Source: Oscillospiraceae bacterium (GTDB lineage: Bacteria; Bacillota; Clostridia; Oscillospirales; UBA929). Taken from it: a stretch of DNA of 64,000 nt. Shown in pieces: positions 15,413 through 63,584 of this stretch. Location: NCBI GenBank assembly GCA_009782215.1, contig WRKO01000003.1:66514-130513 (forward strand), given 5' to 3'. Every line of letters starts with the position of its first letter. Within the stretch, counting starts at the first letter, position 1. Position numbers and translations under genes: made by a program. The notes beneath the pieces were generated by a model, which worked only from the letters and a program-made list of their open reading frames with translations, did not search any database and was not told where the DNA came from.

Positions 15413-17167
15413 ATGAGCATCAAAAAGTGGTTCGCGTTATTCTTGGCAGCCGTTCTGCTCATCGCCCTTTCATCGGCGTGCGCGCTGGGCGGCGGAGGTG
15501 GAGGCGGCGGAGGCGACCCCGGCGGAGCCGACCCCAGCGGCGACCCCGGAGGCTCTCCCGGCGGTTCGGGCGGCCCCGTCGATTTGGTCATCTACTCGCA
15601 GCTTGCCAACTTTTCCGGCGTGCAAGCCGGATGGGCGGCTCAGATTCTCAAGGAGAAATTCAATGTCACCGTTTCCATCATCCCCGAGGCGGACGGCGCT
15701 TTCGCGACGCGCATGGAAGCCGGGTTCTTGGGCGACATCATTCTCTTTGGCGGCAGCGGGCGGCAGTACCGCGACGCTGTGAACGCCGGGATGCTGTTTG
15801 ACTGGGAAGAGGACGGCTTGGTGCAGACCCACGGACCGTATATCTGGGAGCATATGCAGTTCGCGCTGGGCAAAAACCGCGATTTGAACGACGGCAAGCT
15901 ATACGGCTTCGGGCATAATGTGGCCGGCAGCGCGGACGACCATCAGGATTTCTTCTATTACCCCTACCTCCGCTGGGATTTGTATCAGCAGTTGGGCTAT
16001 CCCCGAATCCAAACACTGGAGGACTACATCCCCGTAATCGAAGCTATGGTGGCGCTGGAGCCGCAGAACCAGTTCGGCAACAGAGTCTACGGCGTCTCTT
16101 TCTTCCCCCAATGGGACGGAGACATGGTGATGATGGTCAAATCCACCGGGGCGCTGTATGGCTACGATGAATTCGGTTTCGGGCTGTATGACACCAGAAC
16201 GCAGACCTACCAGCCGATTTTTGAGGACGGCAGCATGTATCTCCGCGCACTCAGTTTTTACAACCAGCTCTTCCAGCGGGGTCTTGTGGATCCCGACTCG
16301 ATGACGCAGACCTTTGACGACATGAGGGAAAAATACCTCAACGGGCAGGCCATGTTCAACATCTTTAGCTGGATGGCCGACCCCTTCAACACCGAGGAGA
16401 ATATGGCGGCCGGCAAGGCCATGATGTGCGTGGCGGCCGAAGATCAGGAAAACATCGTCTACGGCCTGAACCCGTTCGGAGGCAACCGCGTGTGGGCCAT
16501 CGGCGCGCAGACGGCCTATCCCGAGCTGTGCATGGAAATCATCAACTGGCTCTGCACCCCCGAGGGCGTTCTGTCGTATAACTACGGGCCGCAAGGCGTT
16601 ACATGGGACTACGACGAAAACGGCGACACCTACATGACCGAGGCGGGGCTGTCCGCCCAAGAGGACGGCGACAACACGATGATTCAATACCTCGGCTACT
16701 CCGGCAGCTACAGGGACGGCGAGTTCCAGCACAACAACACCACATGGGTCAGGGAAGCCATCAACCCCGATTCCGCGTCCGGCGAGAGCTTCAACTGGGA
16801 AGTTTGGCAAAGCACGCTGGAAAACAGGTTCATCCACCCCATTGAGCAGTCTTGGCGCGACCACTTCGACGCTCTGCGCGCCGACGATTACCTTATCAGC
16901 AGAGGCCACCGCTCCATAGCCATCGGCTCAACCTTTGAAATGGAAAGCCGCAGTTCCGAGCTTGACGTCACTTGGCAGCAGGTATCCCTCACGATTAAAA
17001 ACGGCTCATGGGACGCCATATACGCCGCGACCGACGAGGAGTTCGACGCCATTGTCACCAAGATGATTGACGACGCCATCGCGTTCGGATATGCCGAATG
17101 TGTTGAATGGGTCGCCGGGCAGGCCCTGCTCCGCAAACAGGCGGAAGACGAAGCGATGGGACGGTAA
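15413..17167 (+). CDS. extracellular solute-binding lipoprotein (LplA-like) of the ABC importer
   Basis: Lipobox LSSAC followed by a Gly/Pro linker. The 584-aa size and sequence are typical of family-1 large sugar-binding proteins. Confidence 0.85.
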   Translation: MSIKKWFALFLAAVLLIALSSACALGGGGGGGGGDPGGADPSGDPGGSPGGSGGPVDLVIYSQLANFSGVQAGWAAQILKEKFNVTVSIIPEADGAFATRMEAGFLGDIILFGGSGRQYRDAVNAGMLFDWEEDGLVQTHGPYIWEHMQFALGKNRDLNDGKLYGFGHNVAGSADDHQDFFYYPYLRWDLYQQLGYPRIQTLEDYIPVIEAMVALEPQNQFGNRVYGVSFFPQWDGDMVMMVKSTGALYGYDEFGFGLYDTRTQTYQPIFEDGSMYLRALSFYNQLFQRGLVDPDSMTQTFDDMREKYLNGQAMFNIFSWMADPFNTEENMAAGKAMMCVAAEDQENIVYGLNPFGGNRVWAIGAQTAYPELCMEIINWLCTPEGVLSYNYGPQGVTWDYDENGDTYMTEAGLSAQEDGDNTMIQYLGYSGSYRDGEFQHNNTTWVREAINPDSASGESFNWEVWQSTLENRFIHPIEQSWRDHFDALRADDYLISRGHRSIAIGSTFEMESRSSELDVTWQQVSLTIKNGSWDAIYAATDEEFDAIVTKMIDDAIAFGYAECVEWVAGQALLRKQAEDEAMGR

Positions 17168-17172
17168 CTACT

Positions 17173-17874
17173 ATGTACAGAACACAATCTCAACGGGAGG
17201 ACATTCTCAACCTCTATGACAAGCTGCGCGTTACCGATACGCGGGACGGGCTGGACTGGATTGGCTACCACCATTACGGCAGCATGAGTCCCGATATGCG
17301 GCCGCTCTGGCGGACACGCGCCGTCGGGTTTGCCAAAACGGCCCGGTACATCCCCTATGACAAGCCCGCCCCCAATCTGACCGGGAACGCCTACACCGAA
17401 TGGTCGGGCTGGTATTACGGCAACGTCTGCATTTACCCGTGGATGACGGAGATTGAAAAGTACGATTTCCCCGTCATTGACATGTCCAACCTCGCCGTGG
17501 GGCTGATGGGCTCCAACAACACGATGGAGGGCGTCCGCGACGGCGCCGTGGGTTATGTGGCGTTCGGCGGCGTTCGGGACACCGACGAGATTATCCTGCA
17601 AAGCATCCCGTTCTGGTCAACAAAGATTGCCCAGCCGATGGATCAAGCCCGCATCCAATACGAAAGCCACAACACCAACATCAACTGCGACGGCGTCTGC
17701 GTCTGCCCCGGCGACCTCATTGTCGCCGACGGAGACGGGGTGGTGGTCGTCCCCGCCGAGCTGGCGGAAGACGTGGGCAAATGGGCGGCAAAAGAAATGA
17801 ACGCAGACCGCGCCGCGCGCCGCAGGCTGTATGTCGATTTGGGCATGGCGCTGGACGATTCGGTGCGGGATTAA
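17173..17874 (+). CDS. RraA-family protein (RraA / HMG-CHA aldolase-like)
   Basis: ATG at 17173. GGVRDTDEI and GDLIVADGDGVVVVPAELAEDV match the RraA-fold signature. Confidence 0.75.
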   Translation: MYRTQSQREDILNLYDKLRVTDTRDGLDWIGYHHYGSMSPDMRPLWRTRAVGFAKTARYIPYDKPAPNLTGNAYTEWSGWYYGNVCIYPWMTEIEKYDFPVIDMSNLAVGLMGSNNTMEGVRDGAVGYVAFGGVRDTDEIILQSIPFWSTKIAQPMDQARIQYESHNTNINCDGVCVCPGDLIVADGDGVVVVPAELAEDVGKWAAKEMNADRAARRRLYVDLGMALDDSVRD

Positions 17875-17890
17875 CGAATCAAACACAAAA

Positions 17891-17915
17891 AACAGGGCTT
17901 TCGCCCTGTTTTTTG
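17891..17915 (+). terminator. rho-independent terminator of the glycan operon
   Basis: AACAGGGC-TTTC-GCCCTGTT followed by TTTTT. Confidence 0.85.
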
Positions 17916-17918
17916 CTC

Positions 17919-17948
17919 TTGACAATAATCGTCATTATATGCTATAAT
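17919..17948 (+). promoter_or_regulatory. consensus sigma-A promoter (plus strand) firing toward the pilus operon 3' end
   Basis: TTGACA, 18 nt, TATAAT, with TGn extended -10. GAAGAACCC begins 8 nt downstream of the -10. Confidence 0.6.
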
Positions 17949-18035
17949 TTTCCTGTGAAGAACCCCTGCCGGGGCGAGCCTGCTGCCTTCTTCGTATTCT
18001 GTATCGCCGGAGCCGATGAGAGGAGGTGGATAGTT

Positions 18036-18149
18036 GTGAGTTTTGGGCAAACGGTGAAAGAGCTTCGATTACTTATAGCCGAGTTTCGGAAAATCGTTGT
18101 CATATTAGCCAACCGCCGCAAAATGAGTAGCGAAAAGCCCTCCCGATAG
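18036..18149 (+). CDS. candidate 37-codon sORF (MSFGQTVKELRLLIAEFRKIVVILANRRKMSSEKPSR)
   Basis: GTG start 5 nt after GAGAGGAGGTGGA. It lies about 80 nt downstream of the predicted TSS. Its 3' end is covered by the convergent antisense transcript. Confidence 0.3.
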   Translation: MSFGQTVKELRLLIAEFRKIVVILANRRKMSSEKPSR

Positions 18150-18217
18150 CCGCAAACTGACGGAGGGCTTACGCTTATTCGTTAGGTAGTGGGCCGCCTT
18201 TAGGCGGTGGGTTCTTC
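18131..18217 (-). ncRNA. candidate ~87-nt cis-antisense sRNA
   Basis: Own promoter (18225..18253). The 5' end is GAAGAACCC, followed by the hairpin CCGCC-TAAA-GGCGG, then the terminator AAGCCCTCC-N18-GGAGGGCTT plus TTTCG. Complementary to the 3' end of the plus-strand sORF transcript. Confidence 0.4.
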
Positions 18218-18224
18218 CATTTGT

Positions 18225-18253
18225 ATTTTACCATGTTGTGCGGGGGGTGTCAA
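18225..18253 (-). promoter_or_regulatory. near-consensus sigma-A promoter (minus strand)
   Basis: Reverse strand reads TTGACA, 17 nt, TAAAAT, with TGn. GAAGAACCC begins 7 nt downstream of the -10. Confidence 0.55.
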
Positions 18254-18270
18254 GGGGAATTTTTGTTTTT

Positions 18271-18747
18271 TTATGGAACCCCCTGCATCCCCACTGGGCG
18301 TGCGGCGTAGGTTCTCGTCACTCCAAGGATGGTCAGGGTAACGGCAGATATGCCCGCAGCTTCCTCCGCATACCCTATTTGAACCGTTTTGCCTTTGTAA
18401 TACTCTCCGGCAAACACCGGCGTTCCGTTTCGCAGGAGCAGGCCGGCGGCGGCGCCTGTCCCGATTGTATAGTGGATTTCTCTAGGGGCGCCGACGCGGG
18501 TAATGGTCAAGGTTCCGTCGTCGTCGTCCCAGTCGATATCCTCCGCGTCCTCAATGTCGTTCATTATCACCGACGACAGGGCGTTGAGCAGGTTGTTGAC
18601 CTCGGCCATGCTGTTGGCGTTGATGTAAGCGTTGTACATGGGCAGGAAGACCGCGGTGACGGCGAGCATGATGATACTCATCACCAGCATCGCCACAATC
18701 AGCTCGGTCAGCGTCACGCCTTTTTGGTTGTTCAGCCGTTTAAGCAT
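18271..18747 (-). CDS. type IV prepilin-type protein (158 aa)
   Basis: ATG at 18747 after GGAGG. Class III signal MLKRLNNQKG/VTLTELIVAMLVMSIIMLAV with Glu at +5. Confidence 0.8.
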   Translation of the reverse strand: MLKRLNNQKGVTLTELIVAMLVMSIIMLAVTAVFLPMYNAYINANSMAEVNNLLNALSSVIMNDIEDAEDIDWDDDDGTLTITRVGAPREIHYTIGTGAAAGLLLRNGTPVFAGEYYKGKTVQIGYAEEAAGISAVTLTILGVTRTYAARPVGMQGVP

Positions 18748-26103: not shown

Positions 26104-26340
26104 TCATTTCTCAATTTCGATTCCACAGTATCTGCACCGATATACTTGACGAACGGATTGCCCAGAACTATGACCTTGCCATGTGTATGTTTTTGTGCCA
26201 ATATACTCCGTGTCGTTATGTATACATGAAAGTCTCTTTTCCTTTTCTTTCTTTGCATTTTTTATGATAAAATATATCGGCAATATACCCATCGACAGAA
26301 TAATTAACACGCCGATAATCCCAGTCGCAACCTCACCCAT
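26104..26340 (-). CDS. small membrane protein (78 aa) with a C-terminal Cys pair
   Basis: GAGGAGG SD. TM helix GIIGVLIILSMGILPIYFII, a basic linker, and C...CRYC. Has its own promoter. Confidence 0.5.
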   Translation of the reverse strand: MGEVATGIIGVLIILSMGILPIYFIIKNAKKEKEKRLSCIHNDTEYIGTKTYTWQGHSSGQSVRQVYRCRYCGIEIEK

Positions 26341-26413
26341 AATACACCTCCTCTATAAATTACTATATTCCACGCCCCACATCAACGCCGAGCGCGGAAA
26401 AGATTTCTTGGTC

Positions 26414-26442
26414 ATTTTAACACATTTTTATAGGAATGTCAA
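26414..26442 (-). promoter_or_regulatory. promoter of the 78-aa gene
   Basis: Reverse strand reads TTGACA, 17 nt, TAAAAT, with TGn. Confidence 0.5.
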
Positions 26443-26461: not shown

Positions 26462-26845
26462 TTAAAACACACATTGAACATCATACTTTTGGATGTCTTC
26501 ATCCGCGGTTATGAGCGTCATATTTTCGGCGAGGGCAGTTGCGATAATGAGCCTGTCGAACGGGTCGCGGTGGTGAAGCGGCAGGGTAAAAAGCCGTTCT
26601 ATGTGTTCGTCCCGTATGGGCAGGACGTTAAAGTAATTGTCGTTTATAAGTTGGCGCAGAGCTGAAAAACCGCCGAGAAATTTATATTTACCGATATTCA
26701 TTTTAAGCGCGACTTCCCATAACGAAACGACACTGACGAAGCATTGATTCGTAGGACTGAAAATATTTGATTTGGCTTTATCGGACAGCTTAATATCGTT
26801 TTCAAACAGCCAAAGCACTATTTGAGTATCAAGTAGACATTTCAT
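26462..26845 (-). CDS. vapC: PIN-domain toxin (VapC family)
   Basis: 127 aa. LLDTQI at the N-terminus, SLWEV, and DPFDRLIIATA..LITAD are typical PIN acidic-residue motifs. 4-nt overlap with the upstream antitoxin. Confidence 0.85.
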   Translation of the reverse strand: MKCLLDTQIVLWLFENDIKLSDKAKSNIFSPTNQCFVSVVSLWEVALKMNIGKYKFLGGFSALRQLINDNYFNVLPIRDEHIERLFTLPLHHRDPFDRLIIATALAENMTLITADEDIQKYDVQCVF

Positions 26846-27081
26846 TCCATATACTTCCTTAACTCTTCAAGGGGGGCGTTGAAGTCGTCGGCTGTCCATG
26901 TTTTACCTTTCATGCAGCCGAACAGAGCCTTTCGTCTTTCAACAATTTCTTCGGGTGTTATAGGGTTTGTCATAGGTTTAGGCTCTACCATAACCATGTC
27001 GCGCAGGAAAATGCTAACCGCCCTCAAAGTGTTTTCCGGCAGCAGTTCGATGTCTCTGTGCAGTTGTTGTCTGAGTTCCAT
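26842..27081 (-). CDS. type II antitoxin partner of VapC
   Basis: 79 aa, translationally coupled to the PIN gene. Its position and size are typical of an antitoxin. Confidence 0.65.
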   Translation of the reverse strand: MELRQQLHRDIELLPENTLRAVSIFLRDMVMVEPKPMTNPITPEEIVERRKALFGCMKGKTWTADDFNAPLEELRKYME

Positions 27082-27121
27082 ATCATCACCTCTTTCAGAC
27101 TGTTAAGGGATTTCCGCAGTA

Positions 27122-27150
27122 ATTATAACACAGATTTGCTGTTTTTTCAA
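27122..27150 (-). promoter_or_regulatory. promoter of the vapBC pair
   Basis: Reverse strand reads TTGAAA, 17 nt, TATAAT, with TGn. Confidence 0.55.
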
Positions 27151-30994: not shown

Positions 30995-31674
30995 AAACTA
31001 ACACGTTCATGGCGGCGGAATGTCCATGTGCCGAAGGCTAGTTCATATACCATTTCATCAAAACCAAGAGGATCAGTATGATTGTCGTCGGCTTCCAGCA
31101 ATTCTGCGCCACCGACAAGATGATAGGTTGTAACCGACACAACTGTTAGACCTCTGTACTCCGCTTCGACCGTAACCCACAGCTCACCGCCAGAATAGTA
31201 TTCTCGCTGGCTAATATGCGCTTTTGAAGGGCTTCCGGGATGTGTTATAATCTCCTCTCCGCTTTCTTCATCTAGTTCCTTTGTTGGCTCAACAGCCACC
31301 ACATACGGACTGCATGGGCGGGACGTATGCCCTCTCAATTCGCCACTCACAGTGATTTGAAATGTTACGCCGTCCCATCCATACTCTTCGTCAAGCTCCA
31401 TATTTATTGCGTGTCCGTCATCATCATTATACGCCATCCAAAAAAGTTGCGCTTTGAATTCATCCTGATTTATCAGTTCCCTCAGGGTTAGTTCCATGCT
31501 GTTGACGTAGAGGTTGAGCTGGTTTTCGGCGCGGGCGGAGGCGGCGGCGCCGAGGTTGGCGCCTGCGGCGGTAAGGGCGGAGACGCCTATAGCCATCAGC
31601 AGCAGCATCGCCGCCAACACAAACAGCATTGACGCGCCGCGCCTGTTCCGTATCACGGTTTTACCTCCCCGCAC
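30991..31674 (-). CDS. PilX-like minor pilin
   Basis: N-terminus NRRGASMLFVLAAMLLLMAIGVSALTAAG resembles the PilX/GspK-type N-terminal segment (no Glu at +5). The start overlaps the giant gene's stop by 14 nt. Confidence 0.6.
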   Translation of the reverse strand: MRGGKTVIRNRRGASMLFVLAAMLLLMAIGVSALTAAGANLGAAASARAENQLNLYVNSMELTLRELINQDEFKAQLFWMAYNDDDGHAINMELDEEYGWDGVTFQITVSGELRGHTSRPCSPYVVAVEPTKELDEESGEEIITHPGSPSKAHISQREYYSGGELWVTVEAEYRGLTVVSVTTYHLVGGAELLEADDNHTDPLGFDEMVYELAFGTWTFRRHERVSF

Positions 31675-34600
31675 AGCGTTTGGCTTTCCGGTTTTTGCTT
31701 AGTTTCCGTCTTTTTAACAGTTGCTGAATGGACAGACCCCCGGCAAGGACGACCGAATCGTAAGGGGACGGCGCGCCGCCGCAGGTGCATTCGCAGACGC
31801 ACCCGTCGTCACACGCGCAAGCGTCGAAGCAAGCGCAGGGTATCGCGGCGGCCATCATCTCAAAGCTCCGCCCGGCAACAGCCCCCAACTCCTTCGGTTT
31901 TGAAGCGTCAACCTCAACGTCGATTTTCATTATCTCCGAGGATAAGATTAACCCGGCGGCTTCAAGCTCAACGGAATAGTAGATGGTAAATTTGTCTGCC
32001 TCATATTCGTGCCAATCGGCTAGAGCGCTATCTATCGGCAGCAGCGTTATGACAAGCTGAACCGCGCTGCCATCGACGGCTTGCAGCAACTCGATGATAT
32101 GCACACGATTTGCCTCGGTTCCTCTTGCAATCCTGACCTCATAATTACCGTTTGCGTTTCTTGCCGCCTTAACCCCTTCTTCATTGTACAGCACAACCTC
32201 CGGCCTGACGGCATGACCGCCGTCACCTCTTATCTTTTCCAAAAGGTCGCCCAGCAAGTCAATAATGATACTGCCCGGCACGCCGAAAGGGCCCGGCGTT
32301 ATCTCTTCGGGGTCTATTTTAATGGATTTATTTTCAGCTTCAATCGGTATGCCCACAACCGTCCTCGGGAAATTCAGCCTTGCCGGAAGCAAGCCGTATC
32401 CCACCTGCGTAGCCAACTCAAACATATACCGATAATCCGCCGTCACGCTGTCGAAAATCACGCCGTGGTCGTCGCCGTCATAAGTCAAAGTATAAGAGCC
32501 GCTCCATGTATCAGGACTCAAAGCGGTAGACGCCTGCTCTAAATCCACCGATTTGGTCAAGCGGGTGAAGCCGTCCGTCGTACCCGGCTCTATTACCAAG
32601 CCGACTATGTTCGATACTGCAAACTCCGGCGGAATGACAACGGAAATGACGCCGTTCGTGCTGATTACGGCAGTGGTTTCCGCTGTCAGTGTGACCTCGA
32701 AAACGCCGCCACCCAAGTCCTCAACTTCCTTTTCCAGCTTCACCGGGTCGATGAACACCTGCACCGCGTCTCTATCCGAAGCGTTGTTCTTTGTGTTTGC
32801 ATTGTCGGTATACGGGGCAAGACGGCCGACATAACCATTCCCGAAAGCGCTGTCCCGATAACTTACCGTAGCTTGGTTCCTGATATAATAGTGCATCGTA
32901 TCCGCCGGAGTGGGGTCATCGCCACTACTATTTTGGATGTCAAATCTAATTTGGATGTCAAAGGTCACTGTAAGGACAGCGTTTGAAGCCAATGTGCCGA
33001 GACCGTCAATCGTCAGCTTTCCGCCGACAGGGGCGCCGCTCCGCGCCGAAGCATTTACTTTTACGCTTCCCGGCACAAAGTCATAGTATCGGTCAAAGGG
33101 AGCCAGTATGTCCTCGATGACAATATCGCCAACCGTCACCTCGCCGTGGTTCCTCACCGTCAGCTCCACCGTCAGCACATCGCCCGGCTTGACAAACTTG
33201 ACTTCCCTCCCGTCATCGTCCAGCACCCTCTTGTCAATCGACAAGAATCCGGGAGACTGGAAGGTGATACCGGCGAGGTAGTTGCCTTGTTTGGGGTCGT
33301 TCAGCGACGCGGATTCATACGCAAACTCTGTATAGTTCTGCCCCTCGGGAATGGTGTATAAGCCGTAATATTGCTTCCATTCACTGATACGCCCGGTATA
33401 CGTAGTAGGAGTAAGGCTTGGTCTGTAATAATCGGTTCTGACTAAAGCATTAGTGCTGTTATTATATATTTCAATACATAATTCCCTGCCGTTGCTCCAA
33501 GTGTTATAAGTGAACCTATATCTGTATGTGACTCCACCAGCGGTTGTTGTATAGCGCGTTCCATCCGTGTTGAGCAAATCAACATATGTGCCATCAGCAA
33601 CACTCAGTGTAAAGAGTGTGGTTAAGTTCGCATTTACAAAATCATTGCTTAACCTTCCTCCAGCTCCGGTTCCGCTTCCTGAGTTGTTGTACGCATAGGT
33701 TGTCATTTGGTATGTCGCTCCCGGCAGATACGCCACATCCCAATAGCCGATGATGTTCTTTTCTGCATCATCTCGGAGCGACGCCGGCAAATCGGATATG
33801 GTATTATAGTTATTGGTTAAGGTTGTAACCCCTTCCTCCGACCAGAACGTAATGCCAAGCCCCGGCCCGTTCAGCCAAACATCGTAAAGATACGCTGTTC
33901 TTTCATCTTCTATTACAGAATCATAAAAGCTCACTTCTCCGTACATGATGGTGTCCCTCGTCTGAGGCATACCCGTTGCAGAGCCTCTCTTTGTTGTGGC
34001 GGGACGAATGATCGTCTGCTTTCCGTCCACGTATTCCCATATCCCGTCATTGTTTGTCATGTCGGAAAGATAGAATTTCAGCGTGTCTGTGTTGTTGTTA
34101 AAACGGGCGGCATGGTAGAATGAGTAATACGTTTCCGTTCCGGGGAATGTATGGCTAATTTGATAGAGCGTTCCGGGAATTTCTGCGTTCAGCTCGGCGT
34201 AAACGCCTGTTGCCGTACCCATATAGTTCGTTCGGGCGCGTCCACTATCCGCCAAAGGATGCGGATTTTGGAACTCGATTGAATATATTTGGTCTAAAGT
34301 GGCATCACTAAGGGTTATGTCTGCGGCGGGACGCGTATTCCATCCCTGCACCCAGCTTTGATGGGCATATATCCACTGGTGAGACCAGTTTCCGCTATCT
34401 ACACGGGGGCCTGCCGGGAATATCAACCCCGGTGCATTGTTCACAAGATTGAACGCGCCCGAAGTAAACTGTGAAACGACCTCGTAAGACTGGTCTGGGT
34501 CGTTTGGGTTCATCAGCGGCATATCAAAGTCTCCGTTGATAAACCCTATGCTTCCGACGCTGTTGCTGCTTAGCGTCGGTTCCCACGCGGGGCCGTGCAA

Positions 34601-37600
34601 CAGGGGGTTGTCGTCGTCGATATCCGCCGCTCTGTCTGCGCGGTCAACTTGGTCTAGGCGCACCGGGCCGTTGGTTTCGGGCCAGTTTTGCGGGGCGGCC
34701 GCATTGTTCAGCAGCGGGTAGTGATACCCGGCGGGGGGCTGGTTCCATTTCGCCCATTCAGCGATTTCAAACTCACCGCTCTTTGCAATTAAGGGGAGGA
34801 AGTCAAGGTTCAGGAACGAGGCGTAGAGTCCTTGTCCGCCGCCCACAACATTTGCCGCCAACGGCGGGATGTTGTAATTCCCGGCAATCCAGTTTGCGGC
34901 AGGGCCTTGATTGCCCTCAACCGTATATTGCCTGCCGTAGATATAGAAAGCGTCGCTGACGTTGGGGACTGTGGCGTCATCGTCGTCGTCATCGTCTACC
35001 GCTCTGCCCTGTATGGGGAAGATGTTGATGGTATCCCCGCTCACTTTCGGCGCGGGCGCGAGGTAGAGGGCGCGGCTGACGGCGTTGCTCCCCGCGTCGC
35101 CGACGATGCCGCCGACGTTTTCGCTCCCGGTTATGGGGGATTCTGTTTCCGTGCTGAGGAAGAAAACATCTGAGATATCTCCTTCGGTTTTCCCGATAAG
35201 CCCGCCGACGTTGGTTTCGCCGGCGACTTTGACGTTTTCCGCATAGCTGTCGCTGACTTCGCCGCTGACATGGCCCGCCAAGCCCCCGACATTGGTTTCG
35301 CCGGTGACGCTCTTGCCGCGGACGTATGAGCCGAAGACGCTCGCCGCGCTGCCCGCCACGCCGCCGGCGTTGGCGCTGTTCGCATTAACGGTGACATTCA
35401 CCGCGAAACTGCCCATCACGACGTTGACTTTCCCCACTACGCCGCCGACATTGGTTCCACCGCTGACGCTGCTCGCGCCGCTGACGGAGGAGCCGGTAAC
35501 ACTCGCCGTGCTGCCCACTACGCCCCCGATGTCGTTGCCGCCGTTGACGGTCACGTCTACCGCATGGCTGTTGCTGACGCTCGCCGCGTTGCCCACCACG
35601 CCCCCGGCGTTGCTGCCGCCGGTGACGGTCACGTCTACCGCATGGCTGTTGCTGACGCTCGCCGCGCTGCCCACCACGCCCCCGGCGTTACTGCCGGTGG
35701 CGGTTACGGTGACATTGGCCGCAGTCATGCCGGATATCCCCGCACTATTATCCTCAAGGCCAATGATGCCGCCGACGTTGCTGCCGCCGCTGACAGTGTT
35801 GGCGCCGCGCAGCTCAACCCCGCTGACCGCCCCGCTGTTTGTCCCCGCCAGCCCGCCGACGTTATCGCCGCCGCTGACAGCGCCGTCGTACAGCTCAATC
35901 CCACTGACCGCCCCGCTGTTTGTCCCCACCAGCCCGCCGACGTTATCGCCGCCGCTGACAGCGCCGTCGTACAGCTCAATCTCTCTGATTGTCCCGCTGT
36001 TCGTCCCCGCCAGCCCGCCGACGTTATCGCCGGTGCCGGTAACCGCGTTGTTTCTGAGTATGAGATTTTCCACACGTCCGTCCGCGCCGATTTGCGAGAA
36101 GATACCAACATTGCCGCCGCCGTTGATTTTGCCTTGGTCGTTGGTGGCGGTTCCGATGTTTTTGATGGCTTTTGAATTGCCGTTGTATTGGCCGGTGAAG
36201 TTGCCTTGTACGACGGAAGCGGTGATGTTGATGTTGGTTCTGTCTGCGTTGATGAATCCGTTTGAACCTGAATCTGTCCCAGAAGTTGTAGTATTTGTTG
36301 GATTCTGATATCCGGTTGTTGTATTCAATCCGCTAAAATCAATATCAATCTCCTGCCTGTATTTACCGCTACGGGTACTGGAATCTTTTCCGATGTTATT
36401 CAGATGTCTCGGCGTCCGTATTGTATACTCGTAATTTGAAATATCGGGAACAGAGTTCAATGACCAAATCGCTTTTCCAAACAACGGATTGATATAACCG
36501 TCAAAATAATCGGCTTTTTCGGCGTTGCCCTGACCTATTGTGACCCGAATCGGTTCGATGCCGTTGTCGTCCGGCATATGGCTGATTAAGTCTTCCAGAT
36601 TGAACACAACATAAGATTCACCGCCAAGCGCCGGTATCTCTCCCGACTCGCCTGTCTTTCCTTCGTGGAGTACATCTCCGTTCATCTTTCTAACCATATA
36701 CGCACCGCTATTGCCGGGCATGGTTGTAAACGCTATATAGCCGTCTTCCAGCACCTTTTGGCTGTAATCCAACTTATCATCATTATATCCGGCCCAAAGC
36801 CCATATTTCTCTCCGGTTTTTTCATTCACATCTGGATAAATCTCATAATACGCGAATCTAAGCACCGTAGCGTCCGGCTCCGGCCAATGTGGTATTGCCT
36901 GTTCCGTCAATGCCGCCAAGCGCGGATATGGAATATTGTTGGAACCTTGCACCCAACGCCCGCTACTCGGCGTTACTCCGTTCAATGTTGCTCTCGCGTT
37001 TTTCAAATCGTCCACATTCGTGGCACGCCCTCTTCCCGCATCTACATTGACGTTATAGCCTGTTACTCGGAGATACAACACCGTGTTGTTCAATCCCCCC
37101 GGTGATGCTGTTCCGATTACGGGATTGAAGTCATCACCAAAATAGGCGGTGCTATACGCATTTGACAGGGTGCCGCCATCAATAATACCTACAAGTCCTC
37201 CGGTAGAAGCAGTCGTCCCGAACACAGACCGCTCCCAGTTATTTACCTGCGGCGAGTTGTTACCATAATTATAAAACACATTCTGAACCGAGCCGTCGCC
37301 TATATACCCGACCACACCGCCGACGTTCGTTGAACCATCCTTGCCAACCCTCGTAAAGTCCACATAGCAAATGCTAATGTTCCCCGAGGACTGCCCCGCG
37401 ATGCCGCCGACATAATTGTTGCCCACCACTTCATTGAAAGAGCTTCCGCTTCGCATCCCAGCAAACGACTGCGTAATCGTCCCCGCGTTCGTCCCAGCGA
37501 TGCCGCCGACGTTGCTCGTACCTTCAACCGTAACCCCAAGCACACGGCTCCCGGTAATCGTCCCTTCGTTCGTCCCCGCGAGGCTGCCGACGTTTTCGTT

Positions 37601-61773: not shown

Positions 61774-61887
61774 GCTTTGTTGGTGATGTGGGGTTTGTTG
61801 TTAAGGGCGCAAAGGAATCGAACTCGAAGAACCTTAATCCCCAATTTTATTTAATCTTTCGTTCGCAGTAGGGTTAATAGCCTTGTA

Positions 61888-62487
61888 TTATTCCCATCTA
61901 AATTCGGGGTCATTCTTTTTCAAACCTTTTGGTATCTTGTCTGTTCCCTTTTTATATTGTGTTATTCCAATAATTAACCCTAATAGGGAAAAAGAAACGA
62001 GAATTGAAACGGGTAAATACTTTAAATATTCAATATCATTTGTAAAATAAGAAATTACAAGCATTAGCAAAAAGCCAAATACTAAACCGCCTGCCGACCA
62101 ATTTATTAATGTCTGTGTTGAGCGGCTATCCCATGATTGCTTTTTATTGCAAAACGGACATATCCCAAGAAGATTATTCCATATTTTCCCACCCGCGCCT
62201 TCTTCATATACCCCCGCCGCTTCTTTCATCATCGAAATATAATTTTTTACTTCAGCATATGATTTTATTTTCTCATAGCCTATTTGTAATTTTTTATTTG
62301 CTTCATCTTGTAAAGCCGTTGTTTCTTCGGGAGTTAATGATATGGTAGACGTGCTTTTCCTCAAACATGCTGAACGGGTAACCATTTCTGATTTCCAATC
62401 AGTTGTTTTTCCGCAATGTTCACAAATAAAACGATAATAAAAATTACGACTTGCGGAAACGGAAAACTCTTTATAATGGCTTGACAT
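61888..62487 (-). CDS. hypothetical Zn-ribbon membrane protein
   Basis: AT-rich ORF with CEHCG...CPFC Cys pairs and two C-terminal TM helices. Start at M6 of the ORF-track entry or at 62502. Confidence 0.5.
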   Translation of the reverse strand: MSSHYKEFSVSASRNFYYRFICEHCGKTTDWKSEMVTRSACLRKSTSTISLTPEETTALQDEANKKLQIGYEKIKSYAEVKNYISMMKEAAGVYEEGAGGKIWNNLLGICPFCNKKQSWDSRSTQTLINWSAGGLVFGFLLMLVISYFTNDIEYLKYLPVSILVSFSLLGLIIGITQYKKGTDKIPKGLKKNDPEFRWE

Positions 62488-62911
62488 ATATGCTCCTTTC
62501 AAAATTATCCAAATCTCTAAGATTTATATCATCATATTTTTTGAGCATTTCATTATTATAAAAAACCTCTATGTTCCCGGACGCATCTCCAAAATAATCA
62601 ACACCTCTATACGCCTTAAACGAATACCCTAATTTTATCCATTCTTCGTGGGGCAGAATACGAAACCATTTCCAAAAACCCAACGGCGGTATGCTTCTGA
62701 CTACAGCATTGGCGGAAGTAATAAACTTATCGTCTTTTGAAGTGCTTAAATCGCGCAATATGTTAAAATCAAGTTCCCTTTCATCTTCGTTTACATTGCT
62801 ATAACTTTCAGGCGAAATACTGCCGCACTCTTTACATCTGCTTCCCCTGTCCGAAGAATAAGCTCCATAGTGGCGACAGCCGCACTTACAAACCCAGTTC
62901 ATAATTTTCAC
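62471..62911 (-). CDS. hypothetical Zn-ribbon protein
   Basis: 146 aa. CKCGC...CKECG N-terminal Cys cluster. SD GAGGTG. Confidence 0.5.
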   Translation of the reverse strand: MKIMNWVCKCGCRHYGAYSSDRGSRCKECGSISPESYSNVNEDERELDFNILRDLSTSKDDKFITSANAVVRSIPPLGFWKWFRILPHEEWIKLGYSFKAYRGVDYFGDASGNIEVFYNNEMLKKYDDINLRDLDNFERSIYVKPL

Positions 62912-62975
62912 ACCTCAAATATAAATTTTCATACTCGCGCCCCTCATCACCGCAGAACGCTGATAACATTTCTAT

Positions 62976-63003
62976 ATTATAACACAGAAAACCGCTTTGT
63001 CAA
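62976..63003 (-). promoter_or_regulatory. promoter of the two Zn-ribbon genes
   Basis: Reverse strand reads TTGACA, 16 nt, TATAAT, with TGn. Confidence 0.5.
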
Positions 63004-63038
63004 TGCTTTTTGTAGGTTGTAAATGTGGGGAAACGTAC

Positions 63039-63458
63039 TTATTCCGCGTTATTGGGCAATCTATACATTTGTATATCGCCACAAATCTTAAATCCAAATT
63101 GCTCATACAAGCCCGATGCGTCTTTCGTGCCGAGCAGGCCGAGCAAGGATTCAAGTTGTTTATGTTTTGTTATAAAATCTATAAGTGCCTTTCCTATCTC
63201 TTGACCACGATACCTTTCATCAACGACAACATCTCCAAGCCAGTAAACAGCGGCATAATCGGTTATGACACGCGCAAACCCGATTAAAACATCATCTTTA
63301 TAGACTCCGAAGCAAAGAGAATTTTCAATTGTTTTATCAACAATTTCTTTTGAACGATTTTTTGCCCAATATGTTGTTTTCAAAAGCTCATATACACGGT
63401 CAATCTGAATCAATGATTTATCATCACTTATCAAAAAATCATTGTATCTTAATTCCAT
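63039..63458 (-). CDS. GNAT-family N-acetyltransferase
   Basis: 139 aa with the motif VVVDERYRGQEIGKALIDFI. Confidence 0.8.
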   Translation of the reverse strand: MELRYNDFLISDDKSLIQIDRVYELLKTTYWAKNRSKEIVDKTIENSLCFGVYKDDVLIGFARVITDYAAVYWLGDVVVDERYRGQEIGKALIDFITKHKQLESLLGLLGTKDASGLYEQFGFKICGDIQMYRLPNNAE

Positions 63459-63584
63459 TTGAAAACTCCTCTAAAACAAATTTTACTCGCAACCCTGCGA
63501 AAATCGGTTGATGGGTCTACTGTTTATTTGATTTAGTTGTTGTCTAAAATACCACTGCATCAAGGACGTTTATGACCGGCGGCG

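Follow-up and report, generated by a model that had tools for sequence, protein, structure and literature searches.

A 64-kb stretch of an Oscillospiraceae contig (64,000 nucleotides (nt) of WRKO01000003.1, positions 66,514 to 130,513; hereafter "the window") carries a compact element in which two convergent promoters frame a short open reading frame (ORF) and a putative antisense RNA. The element is flanked by an RraA-like gene (17173-17874, plus strand) and the last gene of a minus-strand type IV pilus operon. With a probability of roughly 40%, it is read here as an acquired, self-contained cis-antisense small-gene cassette, which resembles a 3'-overlapping type I toxin-antitoxin (TA) pair in construction and probably also in function. 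Type I TA loci of Clostridia consist of convergent, overlapping genes and encode a small protein with a charged C-terminus (PMC6563280). If real, the element would be a TA-like module of an uncultured Oscillospiraceae lineage (termite-gut type), and its peptide would be of the non-membrane kind. In addition, it has rarely been documented for such loci that a whole promoter-to-promoter cassette arrived in a single small insertion, here flanked by what looks like a target-site duplication. Known from a single sequence, the module is at present a well-defined candidate rather than a discovery.

Two facing promoters and a common start sequence

An earlier note, made from the sequence alone, had proposed that two convergent near-consensus promoters bracket the region, each followed by the same 9-mer. 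The plus-strand promoter, P(+), reads TTGACA-18-TGcTATAAT (17919-17948; -35 at 17919-24, -10 at 17940-48) and matches the consensus at all 12 positions, with an extended -10. The minus-strand promoter, P(-), reads TTGACA-17-TGgTAAAAT (18225-18253; -35 at 18253-48, -10 at 18233-25) and matches at 11 of 12 positions, again with the TG. These are the two top sites of a consensus scan within 10 kb, and they form the sole convergent promoter pair in 245 kb of window and related loci.

Their frequency is well beyond chance: with a threshold of at least 11 of 12 matches to TTGACA-N16-18-TATAAT, the window contains nine near-consensus promoters, compared to 0.43 expected from Markov shuffles. The TG extension is present in seven of the nine. 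Apart from the convergent pair, all of these promoters (seven) are situated approximately 40-75 nt upstream of gene starts, and one of them, at 42232, abuts a listed GTG. The genome appears to use sigma-A-type promoters with an extended -10 that are unusually consensus-like, and promoter prediction is therefore reliable in this organism. Given this excess and the placement of the other seven sites upstream of genes, P(+) and P(-) are very probably both functional, and it is likely that, as two real promoters, they yield an overlapping sense/antisense RNA pair.

The 9-mer GAAGAACCC is located at 17957-17965 on the plus strand, 8 nt after the -10 of P(+), and at 18209-18217 on the minus strand, 7 nt after the -10 of P(-). 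It would thus form the 5' end of both RNAs, and its two copies are the arms of the 9-nt inverted repeat that had been noted at both predicted starts. Three occurrences were found in 64 kb (0.36 expected). A 9-bp inverted repeat anywhere in 450 bp is unremarkable, with an estimated expectation of about 0.4; the chance of a shared 9-mer at the same offset (+/-1 nt) from two given promoters is about 3e-5 by our own arithmetic. The spacers of P(+) and P(-) are unrelated in sequence. Only the functional motifs are kept, which argues for selection on both promoters rather than for a recent duplication, and a recent inverted duplication of a promoter-leader unit was ruled out on these grounds. The motifs themselves and their non-random placement are apparent in the letters of the window.

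A predicted structured plus-strand RNA with a 37-codon ORF

The 261-nt plus-strand RNA between the two predicted starts folds at -105.5 kcal/mol (z -3.76), and none of 200 shuffled sequences reached this stability. For the minus strand of the same 261 nt, the corresponding values are -79.4 kcal/mol and z -1.48. As the plus strand is far more structured than the minus strand, the structure depends on G-U pairs, to the advantage of the plus strand. In the predicted fold, nt 1-9 pair with nt 253-261 with a probability of about 1, and the helix extends imperfectly to approximately 20 bp, which requires a transcript that reaches 18217. The first nucleotides of the leader are predicted to form a small GC hairpin, CCCC-UGCC-GGGG (17963-17974). 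A CU-rich stretch downstream of it (17980-17995) would act as an anti-Shine-Dalgarno sequence, in that the Shine-Dalgarno (SD) region GAGAGGAGGTGG (18018-18029), which can be read directly, is predicted to find its pairing partners at nt 20-39. The GGAGG core is unpaired with a probability of 0.05-0.19 only, in full-length and truncated RNA alike. Cis elements that sequester the ribosome-binding site have been described for toxin mRNAs (PMC8309996).

The motif AGGAGGTG ends 7 nt, and its GGAGG core 9 nt, before the GTG of an ORF of 37 codons (18036-18149, plus strand, TAG stop), encoding MSFGQTVKELRLLIAEFRKIVVILANRRKMSSEKPSR. In the window, about two thirds of all sites combining AGGAGG, a start codon and an ORF are real gene starts. 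With fewer than 60 amino acids (aa) and a ribosome-binding site, the small ORF (sORF) is toxin-sized, as would be expected for a type I TA locus. Its frame is the best of six by codon usage, but scores -2.6 bits.

The peptide is predicted by AlphaFold2 to fold into one single helix comprising residues 3-32 (mean confidence score, pLDDT, of 91), which is amphipathic (hydrophobic moment 0.68 over 11 residues). Its C-terminus (...NRRKMSSEKPSR, net charge +6) is charged like that of type I toxins, for which small size, hydrophobicity, a potential transmembrane domain and a charged C-terminus are the defining traits (PMC6563280). The hydrophobic part of this description does not apply: the grand average of hydropathy is -0.19, the Kyte-Doolittle mean over 19 residues reaches 1.26 at best and thus stays below 1.6, the longest uncharged run comprises seven residues and six charged residues are located inside the helix. 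Among type I toxins, the recognised cytosolic members are at present RalR and SymE alone (PMC8309996).

The predicted minus-strand RNA and a possible mode of action

A small RNA (sRNA) of approximately 87 nt is predicted on the minus strand (18131-18217), with folding energies of -27.5 to -32.7 kcal/mol (z -1.4 to -2.4). In 5' to 3' direction, it would consist of the single-stranded GAAGAACCCA, a GC hairpin (CCGCC-TTTA-GGCGG, 18194-18207; in the plus RNA, these nucleotides are part of the 20-bp closing helix), a single-stranded linker of about 22 nt and a terminator-like hairpin followed by UUUUCGCU. As modelled, this layout is classic for sRNAs. The hairpin, AAGCCCTCC/GGAGGGCTT (18135-18170; arms at 18135-43 and 18162-70), has a 9-bp stem and an 18-nt loop; it resembles a terminator on the minus strand but makes a poor one on the plus strand. 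As the loop is long and the U-run short, with just four consecutive U, sRNA termination may be partial. The sRNA is perfectly complementary to the plus RNA at 18131-18217 and covers the last 19 nt of the ORF.

Together with the ORF and its strong SD, these features bear out the remaining structural claims of the earlier note, i.e., a GTG-initiated 37-codon sORF, an sRNA-like unit of about 87 nt that ends at a hairpin with a U-run and covers the 3' end of the sORF, and, as an in silico prediction, long-range pairing of the mRNA ends.

Based on this layout, transcription, translation, RNA-RNA control and any toxicity of the module can be pictured as follows. After insertion of the cassette between the last pilin gene and an ancestral bidirectional terminator, P(+) would produce an RNA of 261 nt or more that is highly structured and whose 5' GAAGAACCC closes on its own 3' GGGUUCUUC, and the upstream CU-rich stretch would mask the SD and with it the 37-codon ORF. 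P(-) would produce the sRNA, which would pair with the 3' end of the mRNA, i.e., with the last 19 nt of the ORF and the 3' untranslated region (UTR), to which the 3' arm of the closing helix belongs. Because the 9-mer of the sRNA is identical to that at the mRNA 5' end, the sRNA would compete for the same 3' site. The resulting duplex of approximately 87 bp would be a substrate for RNase III and be cleaved. In this model, the module would follow the logic of 3'-overlapping type I pairs such as txpA/RatA, bsrG/SR4 and C. difficile CD2517.1/RCd8, in which an antisense RNA restrains a small protein whose mRNA also silences itself. If the cationic amphipathic helix is toxic, it may act otherwise than classical pore-forming or depolarising toxins.

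An insertion at the 3' end of a pilus operon

Analysis of the genomic context revealed that the element coincides with a lineage-specific insertion. Contigs of relatives were selected via homologues of the PilM/N-like protein (61-67% identity), and five of them exhibit the same gene order, namely the pilus operon followed by a convergent RraA-like gene. The intergenic gap at this site measures 0-26 bp in all five, and the window has 349 bp more. In four of the relatives the gap consists of a bidirectional terminator with the stem CAGGGC-N4-GCCCTG or one like it, which in L010, L033 and L034 fills the entire intergenic region; in L012 the genes overlap. In L010, a gene for an HDOD-domain protein additionally separates the pilin gene from that of the RraA-like protein. 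The window has retained the terminator of its relatives, AAAAAACAGGGC-TTTC-GCCCTGTTTTTT (17885-17916, both strands; 14-pair stem and T-run), which is thus ancestral and located outside the insert, and the 349 extra bp separate it from the pilin stop codon (18271-18273). This terminator ends the RraA-like gene, and minus-strand read-through would stop there as well.

The insert (17915-18263) holds the whole module. Both promoters lie within it, and the module therefore arrived, or exists, as one autonomous unit. Its GC content is 0.49, compared to 0.558 for the window. It is flanked by two copies of the 8-bp direct repeat TGTTTTTT (17907-17914 and 18264-18271), which resembles a target-site duplication. 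The repeat takes in the first two nucleotides of the terminator stem (CA, other strand), which recur beside the pilin stop codon; the right copy of the repeat abuts this codon. As the repeat is of low complexity, the duplication is suggestive only, though the empty site is seen in the relatives. In a PilM/N tree, the lineage of the window is sister to a clade of element-free relatives. The outgroups carry a different operon tail; consequently, the tree does not polarise gain versus loss, and the direct repeat alone speaks for gain. Judged by these comparisons, the element looks like a 349-bp piece that was inserted between the last pilin gene and the ancestral terminator and is known only from this bacterium. 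An assembly artefact is unlikely, as the sequence is clean and the motifs are coherent; the ENA contig used for comparison is the window's own source and hence not independent.

A second rearrangement was observed nearby. In the relatives L010-L012 (9600-13400), a DUF1576 gene and a gene for a 113-aa protein are located between the RraA-like gene and sugar ABC-transporter genes. Unlike this arrangement, the RraA-like gene of the window directly follows the gene for a 584-aa binding protein (15413-17874).

Searches for related sequences

The search for relatives of the element covered RNA families, genomes and metagenomes. In the whole 64-kb window, no Rfam model reached the gathering threshold, so that the Rfam scan, which had been named as a check by the earlier note, returned no known non-coding RNA family for the element. 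ARAGORN found no transfer RNA (tRNA) or transfer-messenger RNA (tmRNA). As candidates, 6S RNA, signal recognition particle RNA, tmRNA, RNase P RNA, riboswitches and known antitoxin RNAs were rejected, there being no Rfam or ARAGORN match to any of them. The absence of the element from the five syntenic relatives further indicates that it is not a housekeeping RNA.

Using blastn and nhmmer, no second copy was detected in the window, in approximately 16 kb more of the same genome or in more than 35 related loci, and records of phages and plasmids showed no similarity to the element. The RraA-like homologues of seven Oscillospiraceae metagenome-assembled genomes are non-syntenic, and the element is absent from them. 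Twelve back-translated patterns tiling both strands of the element identified no relative in JGI metagenome or viral contigs. The pattern GAAGAACCC-N228-258-GGGTTCTTC gave 18 matches in viral contigs, none of which is similar to the element; an estimate drawn from the pattern length and the size of the collection predicts about this number. One JGI contig (L041, JGI 3300002469; 1.7 kb) is 100% identical to 61777-63471 of the window, and the same strain is thus present in this sample. That the element itself is unmatched in JGI contigs could reflect a fragmentary assembly, a break at the element or its absence in that population.

Weighing the cassette against other explanations

The classification as a type I TA-like locus, which the earlier note had offered tentatively, holds in silico for the architecture, i.e., convergent overlap, a small ORF, a charged C-terminus and 5'-3' pairing; SD occlusion is predicted as well, though by a leader fold that does not beat shuffled sequences. 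It does not hold for a transmembrane segment or for a match to a toxin family or an Rfam family, and the module cannot be filed under any type I family. Several results weigh against a TA-like cassette. No transmembrane segment is predicted in the peptide, and a defining feature of classical type I toxins is hence missing. The peptide has no match among 1.84 billion protein representatives; as it fails to find even itself there, it was never called as a gene by any pipeline. Searches of Pfam, NCBIfam and PHROGs returned no family for it. The codon score of the sORF ranks at the 5th percentile of windows that are truly coding and among the top 1.2% of those read off-frame, a borderline result, particularly for DNA that may be foreign. 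Furthermore, the SD-masking leader fold is no more stable than those of shuffled sequences (z -0.08), the sRNA pairs in trans with the translation initiation region no better than shuffles do (p ~0.07-0.13), and the hairpin with its 18-nt loop and short U-run is not a textbook terminator. No convincing plus-strand terminator was found after 18217 before the pilin genes, into which the plus RNA would run antisense. An Rfam scan of the locus at E<10 found nothing inside the element, just terminator look-alikes outside it, and the lone sequence of the element offers neither covariation nor a ratio of nonsynonymous to synonymous substitution rates (Ka/Ks).

Some of these points suit a non-coding sense/antisense RNA pair, in which the sORF is fortuitous and the pilus operon is the target. 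Pilus transcripts would then extend across the P(-) region and contain the sRNA sequence within their 3' UTR, the P(+) RNA would enter two minor-pilin genes antisense, and collision, duplex formation and RNase III would tune the 3' end of the operon. This scenario is doubtful, though several observations fit it. Between the pilin stop codon (18271) and P(-) there is no terminator, which in the relatives directly follows the stop codon, and none that convinces was found on the plus strand past 18217; in addition, the plus RNA is significantly structured and the peptide is an uncalled orphan with a borderline codon score. A perfect AGGAGGTG located 7 nt before the start of a 37-codon ORF and 88 nt downstream of a consensus promoter is, however, not expected by chance, the relatives run the same operon without such a device, and position is the sole tie of the sequence to the pilin mRNA. 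Antisense or collision effects on pil transcripts are plausible from the arrangement. The landing site rewires the 3' end of the type IV pilus operon, which has lost its immediate terminator and gained a facing promoter, and the locus offers a natural test case for the effects of convergent transcription.

The borders of the insert raise the question of a miniature inverted-repeat transposable element (MITE) or a remnant derived from an insertion sequence, whose sub-terminal inverted repeats carry an inward transposase promoter and leader and whose transcripts are functionless by-products. The 8-bp direct repeat at both junctions, with its two nucleotides of the terminator stem, and the lower GC content fit this picture, as do the ends, which are mirror-symmetric in their motifs (CyCTTGACA, TGnTAwAAT and GAAGAACCC, followed by a GC hairpin). 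The existence of an identical-strain JGI contig in a collection from which the element locus was not recovered fits a break at a repeat, but low coverage equally well. Such an origin is nevertheless unlikely. The true ends (GCTCTT... versus ...GGAATTTT) lack clean terminal inverted repeats: the insert begins with GCTCTTGACA... and ends with ...TGTCAAGGGGAATTTT, with the common CyCTTGACA shifted by 1 nt at one end and by 6 nt at the other. The spacers of the two promoters bear no relation to each other, about 80 kb of the same genome, the more than 35 related loci and the collections searched revealed no second copy, and plasmid and phage records show no similarity. A recombinase-driven switch is even harder to support and highly improbable. 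It would flip the 243-bp segment between the 9-bp repeats, so that the terminator-like hairpin, which works in one direction, would face the other of the two outside promoters, and would thereby turn antisense read-through into the pilus operon on or off. A perfect 9-bp inverted repeat (imperfect to about 20 bp) indeed bounds a segment of approximately 250 bp beside a pilus operon, the internal hairpin has its U-run on one strand only, and fimS and C. difficile cwpV provide precedents. Yet inversion merely swaps which promoter makes which RNA, no sense gene is located downstream of either promoter, the neighbouring ORFs that were checked include no recombinase, a 9-bp repeat would be short for a clostridial inverton, and both available assemblies, which are identical, show a single orientation.

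The TA-like cassette is therefore preferred here. A lineage-specific, promoter-to-promoter insertion with 8-bp repeats fits an autonomous, horizontally moving, i.e., selfish, unit. In its most far-reaching form, the module would be a mobile minimal selfish cassette, flanked by a target duplication and composed solely of two convergent promoters, an antisense RNA and a gene for a non-membrane toxin (cytosolic or a cationic helix), with the 9-mer shared by the 5' ends of both RNAs as control element. We consider this form quite improbable; if true, it would constitute a new type I-like TA family with mobility built into the module.

Other genes of the window

Further cassettes were observed around the pilus operon. 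An AT-rich stretch just upstream of it (26462-27150, minus strand) contains a gene for a PIN-domain protein (VapC-like, 127 aa) and a DUF2281 antitoxin-like gene (79 aa), which have their own near-consensus promoter at 27150-27122. In the relative L038, a PIN gene and a gene for a 63-aa protein are located inside the pilus gene cluster. These cases suggest that the pilus locus collects small addiction-type cassettes at both ends. A strong SD and a near-consensus promoter of its own (26442-26414) precede a gene on the minus strand (26104-26442) for a protein of 78 aa, which has a transmembrane helix at the N-terminus, a CxxC pair at the C-terminus and no Pfam match.

Within the window, a 2854-aa protein (31661-40225, minus strand) opens with a prepilin N-terminal methylation motif and is thus a giant pilin-like protein. 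In more distant relatives (L036-L038), this motif also occurs in proteins of 1836 and 2831 aa, which are encoded right at the end of the pilus operon. Finally, an AT-rich stretch at 61888-63003 (minus strand) encodes two Cys-rich proteins behind a perfect 12/12 promoter (63003-62976). One comprises 143 aa with CxC/CxxC motifs, the other 199 aa with CxxC and a C-terminal transmembrane region, and neither has a Pfam match.

Comparison with known systems

Several known systems share parts of this design. The E. coli switch fimS has 9-bp inverted repeats and a length of 314 bp; in C. difficile cwpV, the promoter does not belong to the switch, and a terminator is formed when the switch is in one of its orientations. 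The module resembles both in being a segment of approximately 250-300 bp with short inverted repeats beside a pilus or surface-protein operon. Unlike them, it is situated at the 3' end of the operon, has promoters on both sides and controls no gene in sense; the ORFs checked include no recombinase, and one orientation is seen in the two identical assemblies.

Promoter-bearing miniature elements such as the Correia elements of Neisseria combine a target duplication, mirror-symmetric ends and promoters with transcripts that fold into RNase III-type hairpins. As a short insertion with a target-like duplication, mirror-symmetric ends and promoters, the module is comparable. It differs by the absence of clean terminal inverted repeats, the single copy seen, its larger size and an ORF preceded by an SD.

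The par (fst) locus of the Enterococcus plasmid pAD1 (RNA I/RNA II) has convergent promoters a few hundred bp apart and an ORF of 33 codons; both transcripts share a terminator hairpin, and short repeats occur at both 5' ends. Convergent promoters, a short ORF, a shared hairpin and 5' repeats are likewise found in the module. In par, however, the 5' repeats are direct in the DNA and the RNAs are complementary there, whereas those of the module are inverted and the RNAs are identical there. Fst is also a transmembrane peptide, unlike that of the module. In hok/sok of plasmid R1, the 5' end of the mRNA pairs with its 3' end and the SD is occluded, and the antisense RNA is transcribed from a strong, constitutive-type promoter. 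The predicted 5'-3' fold-back pairing and the strong antisense promoter of the module recall this design, as would its SD if paired as predicted. In contrast, Sok overlaps the 5' leader rather than the 3' end, Hok is a membrane protein of approximately 50 aa from a Gram-negative system, and there is no homology.

The 3'-overlapping type I pairs of Firmicutes, such as txpA/RatA and bsrG/SR4 of B. subtilis and CD2517.1/RCd8, CD2907.1/RCd9 and CD0956.2/RCd10 of C. difficile, differ from the module in several respects. Its peptide lacks a hydrophobic or transmembrane domain, it shows no sequence relation to toxin or antitoxin-RNA families, the coding overlap amounts to 19 nt only, and both of its RNAs start with the same 9-mer. 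Like these pairs, which are often island-borne, it is an unannotated, lineage-specific locus (PMC6563280), and it shares with them convergent overlapping genes, an ORF of fewer than 60 codons, a charged C-terminal tail and an sRNA with its own promoter.

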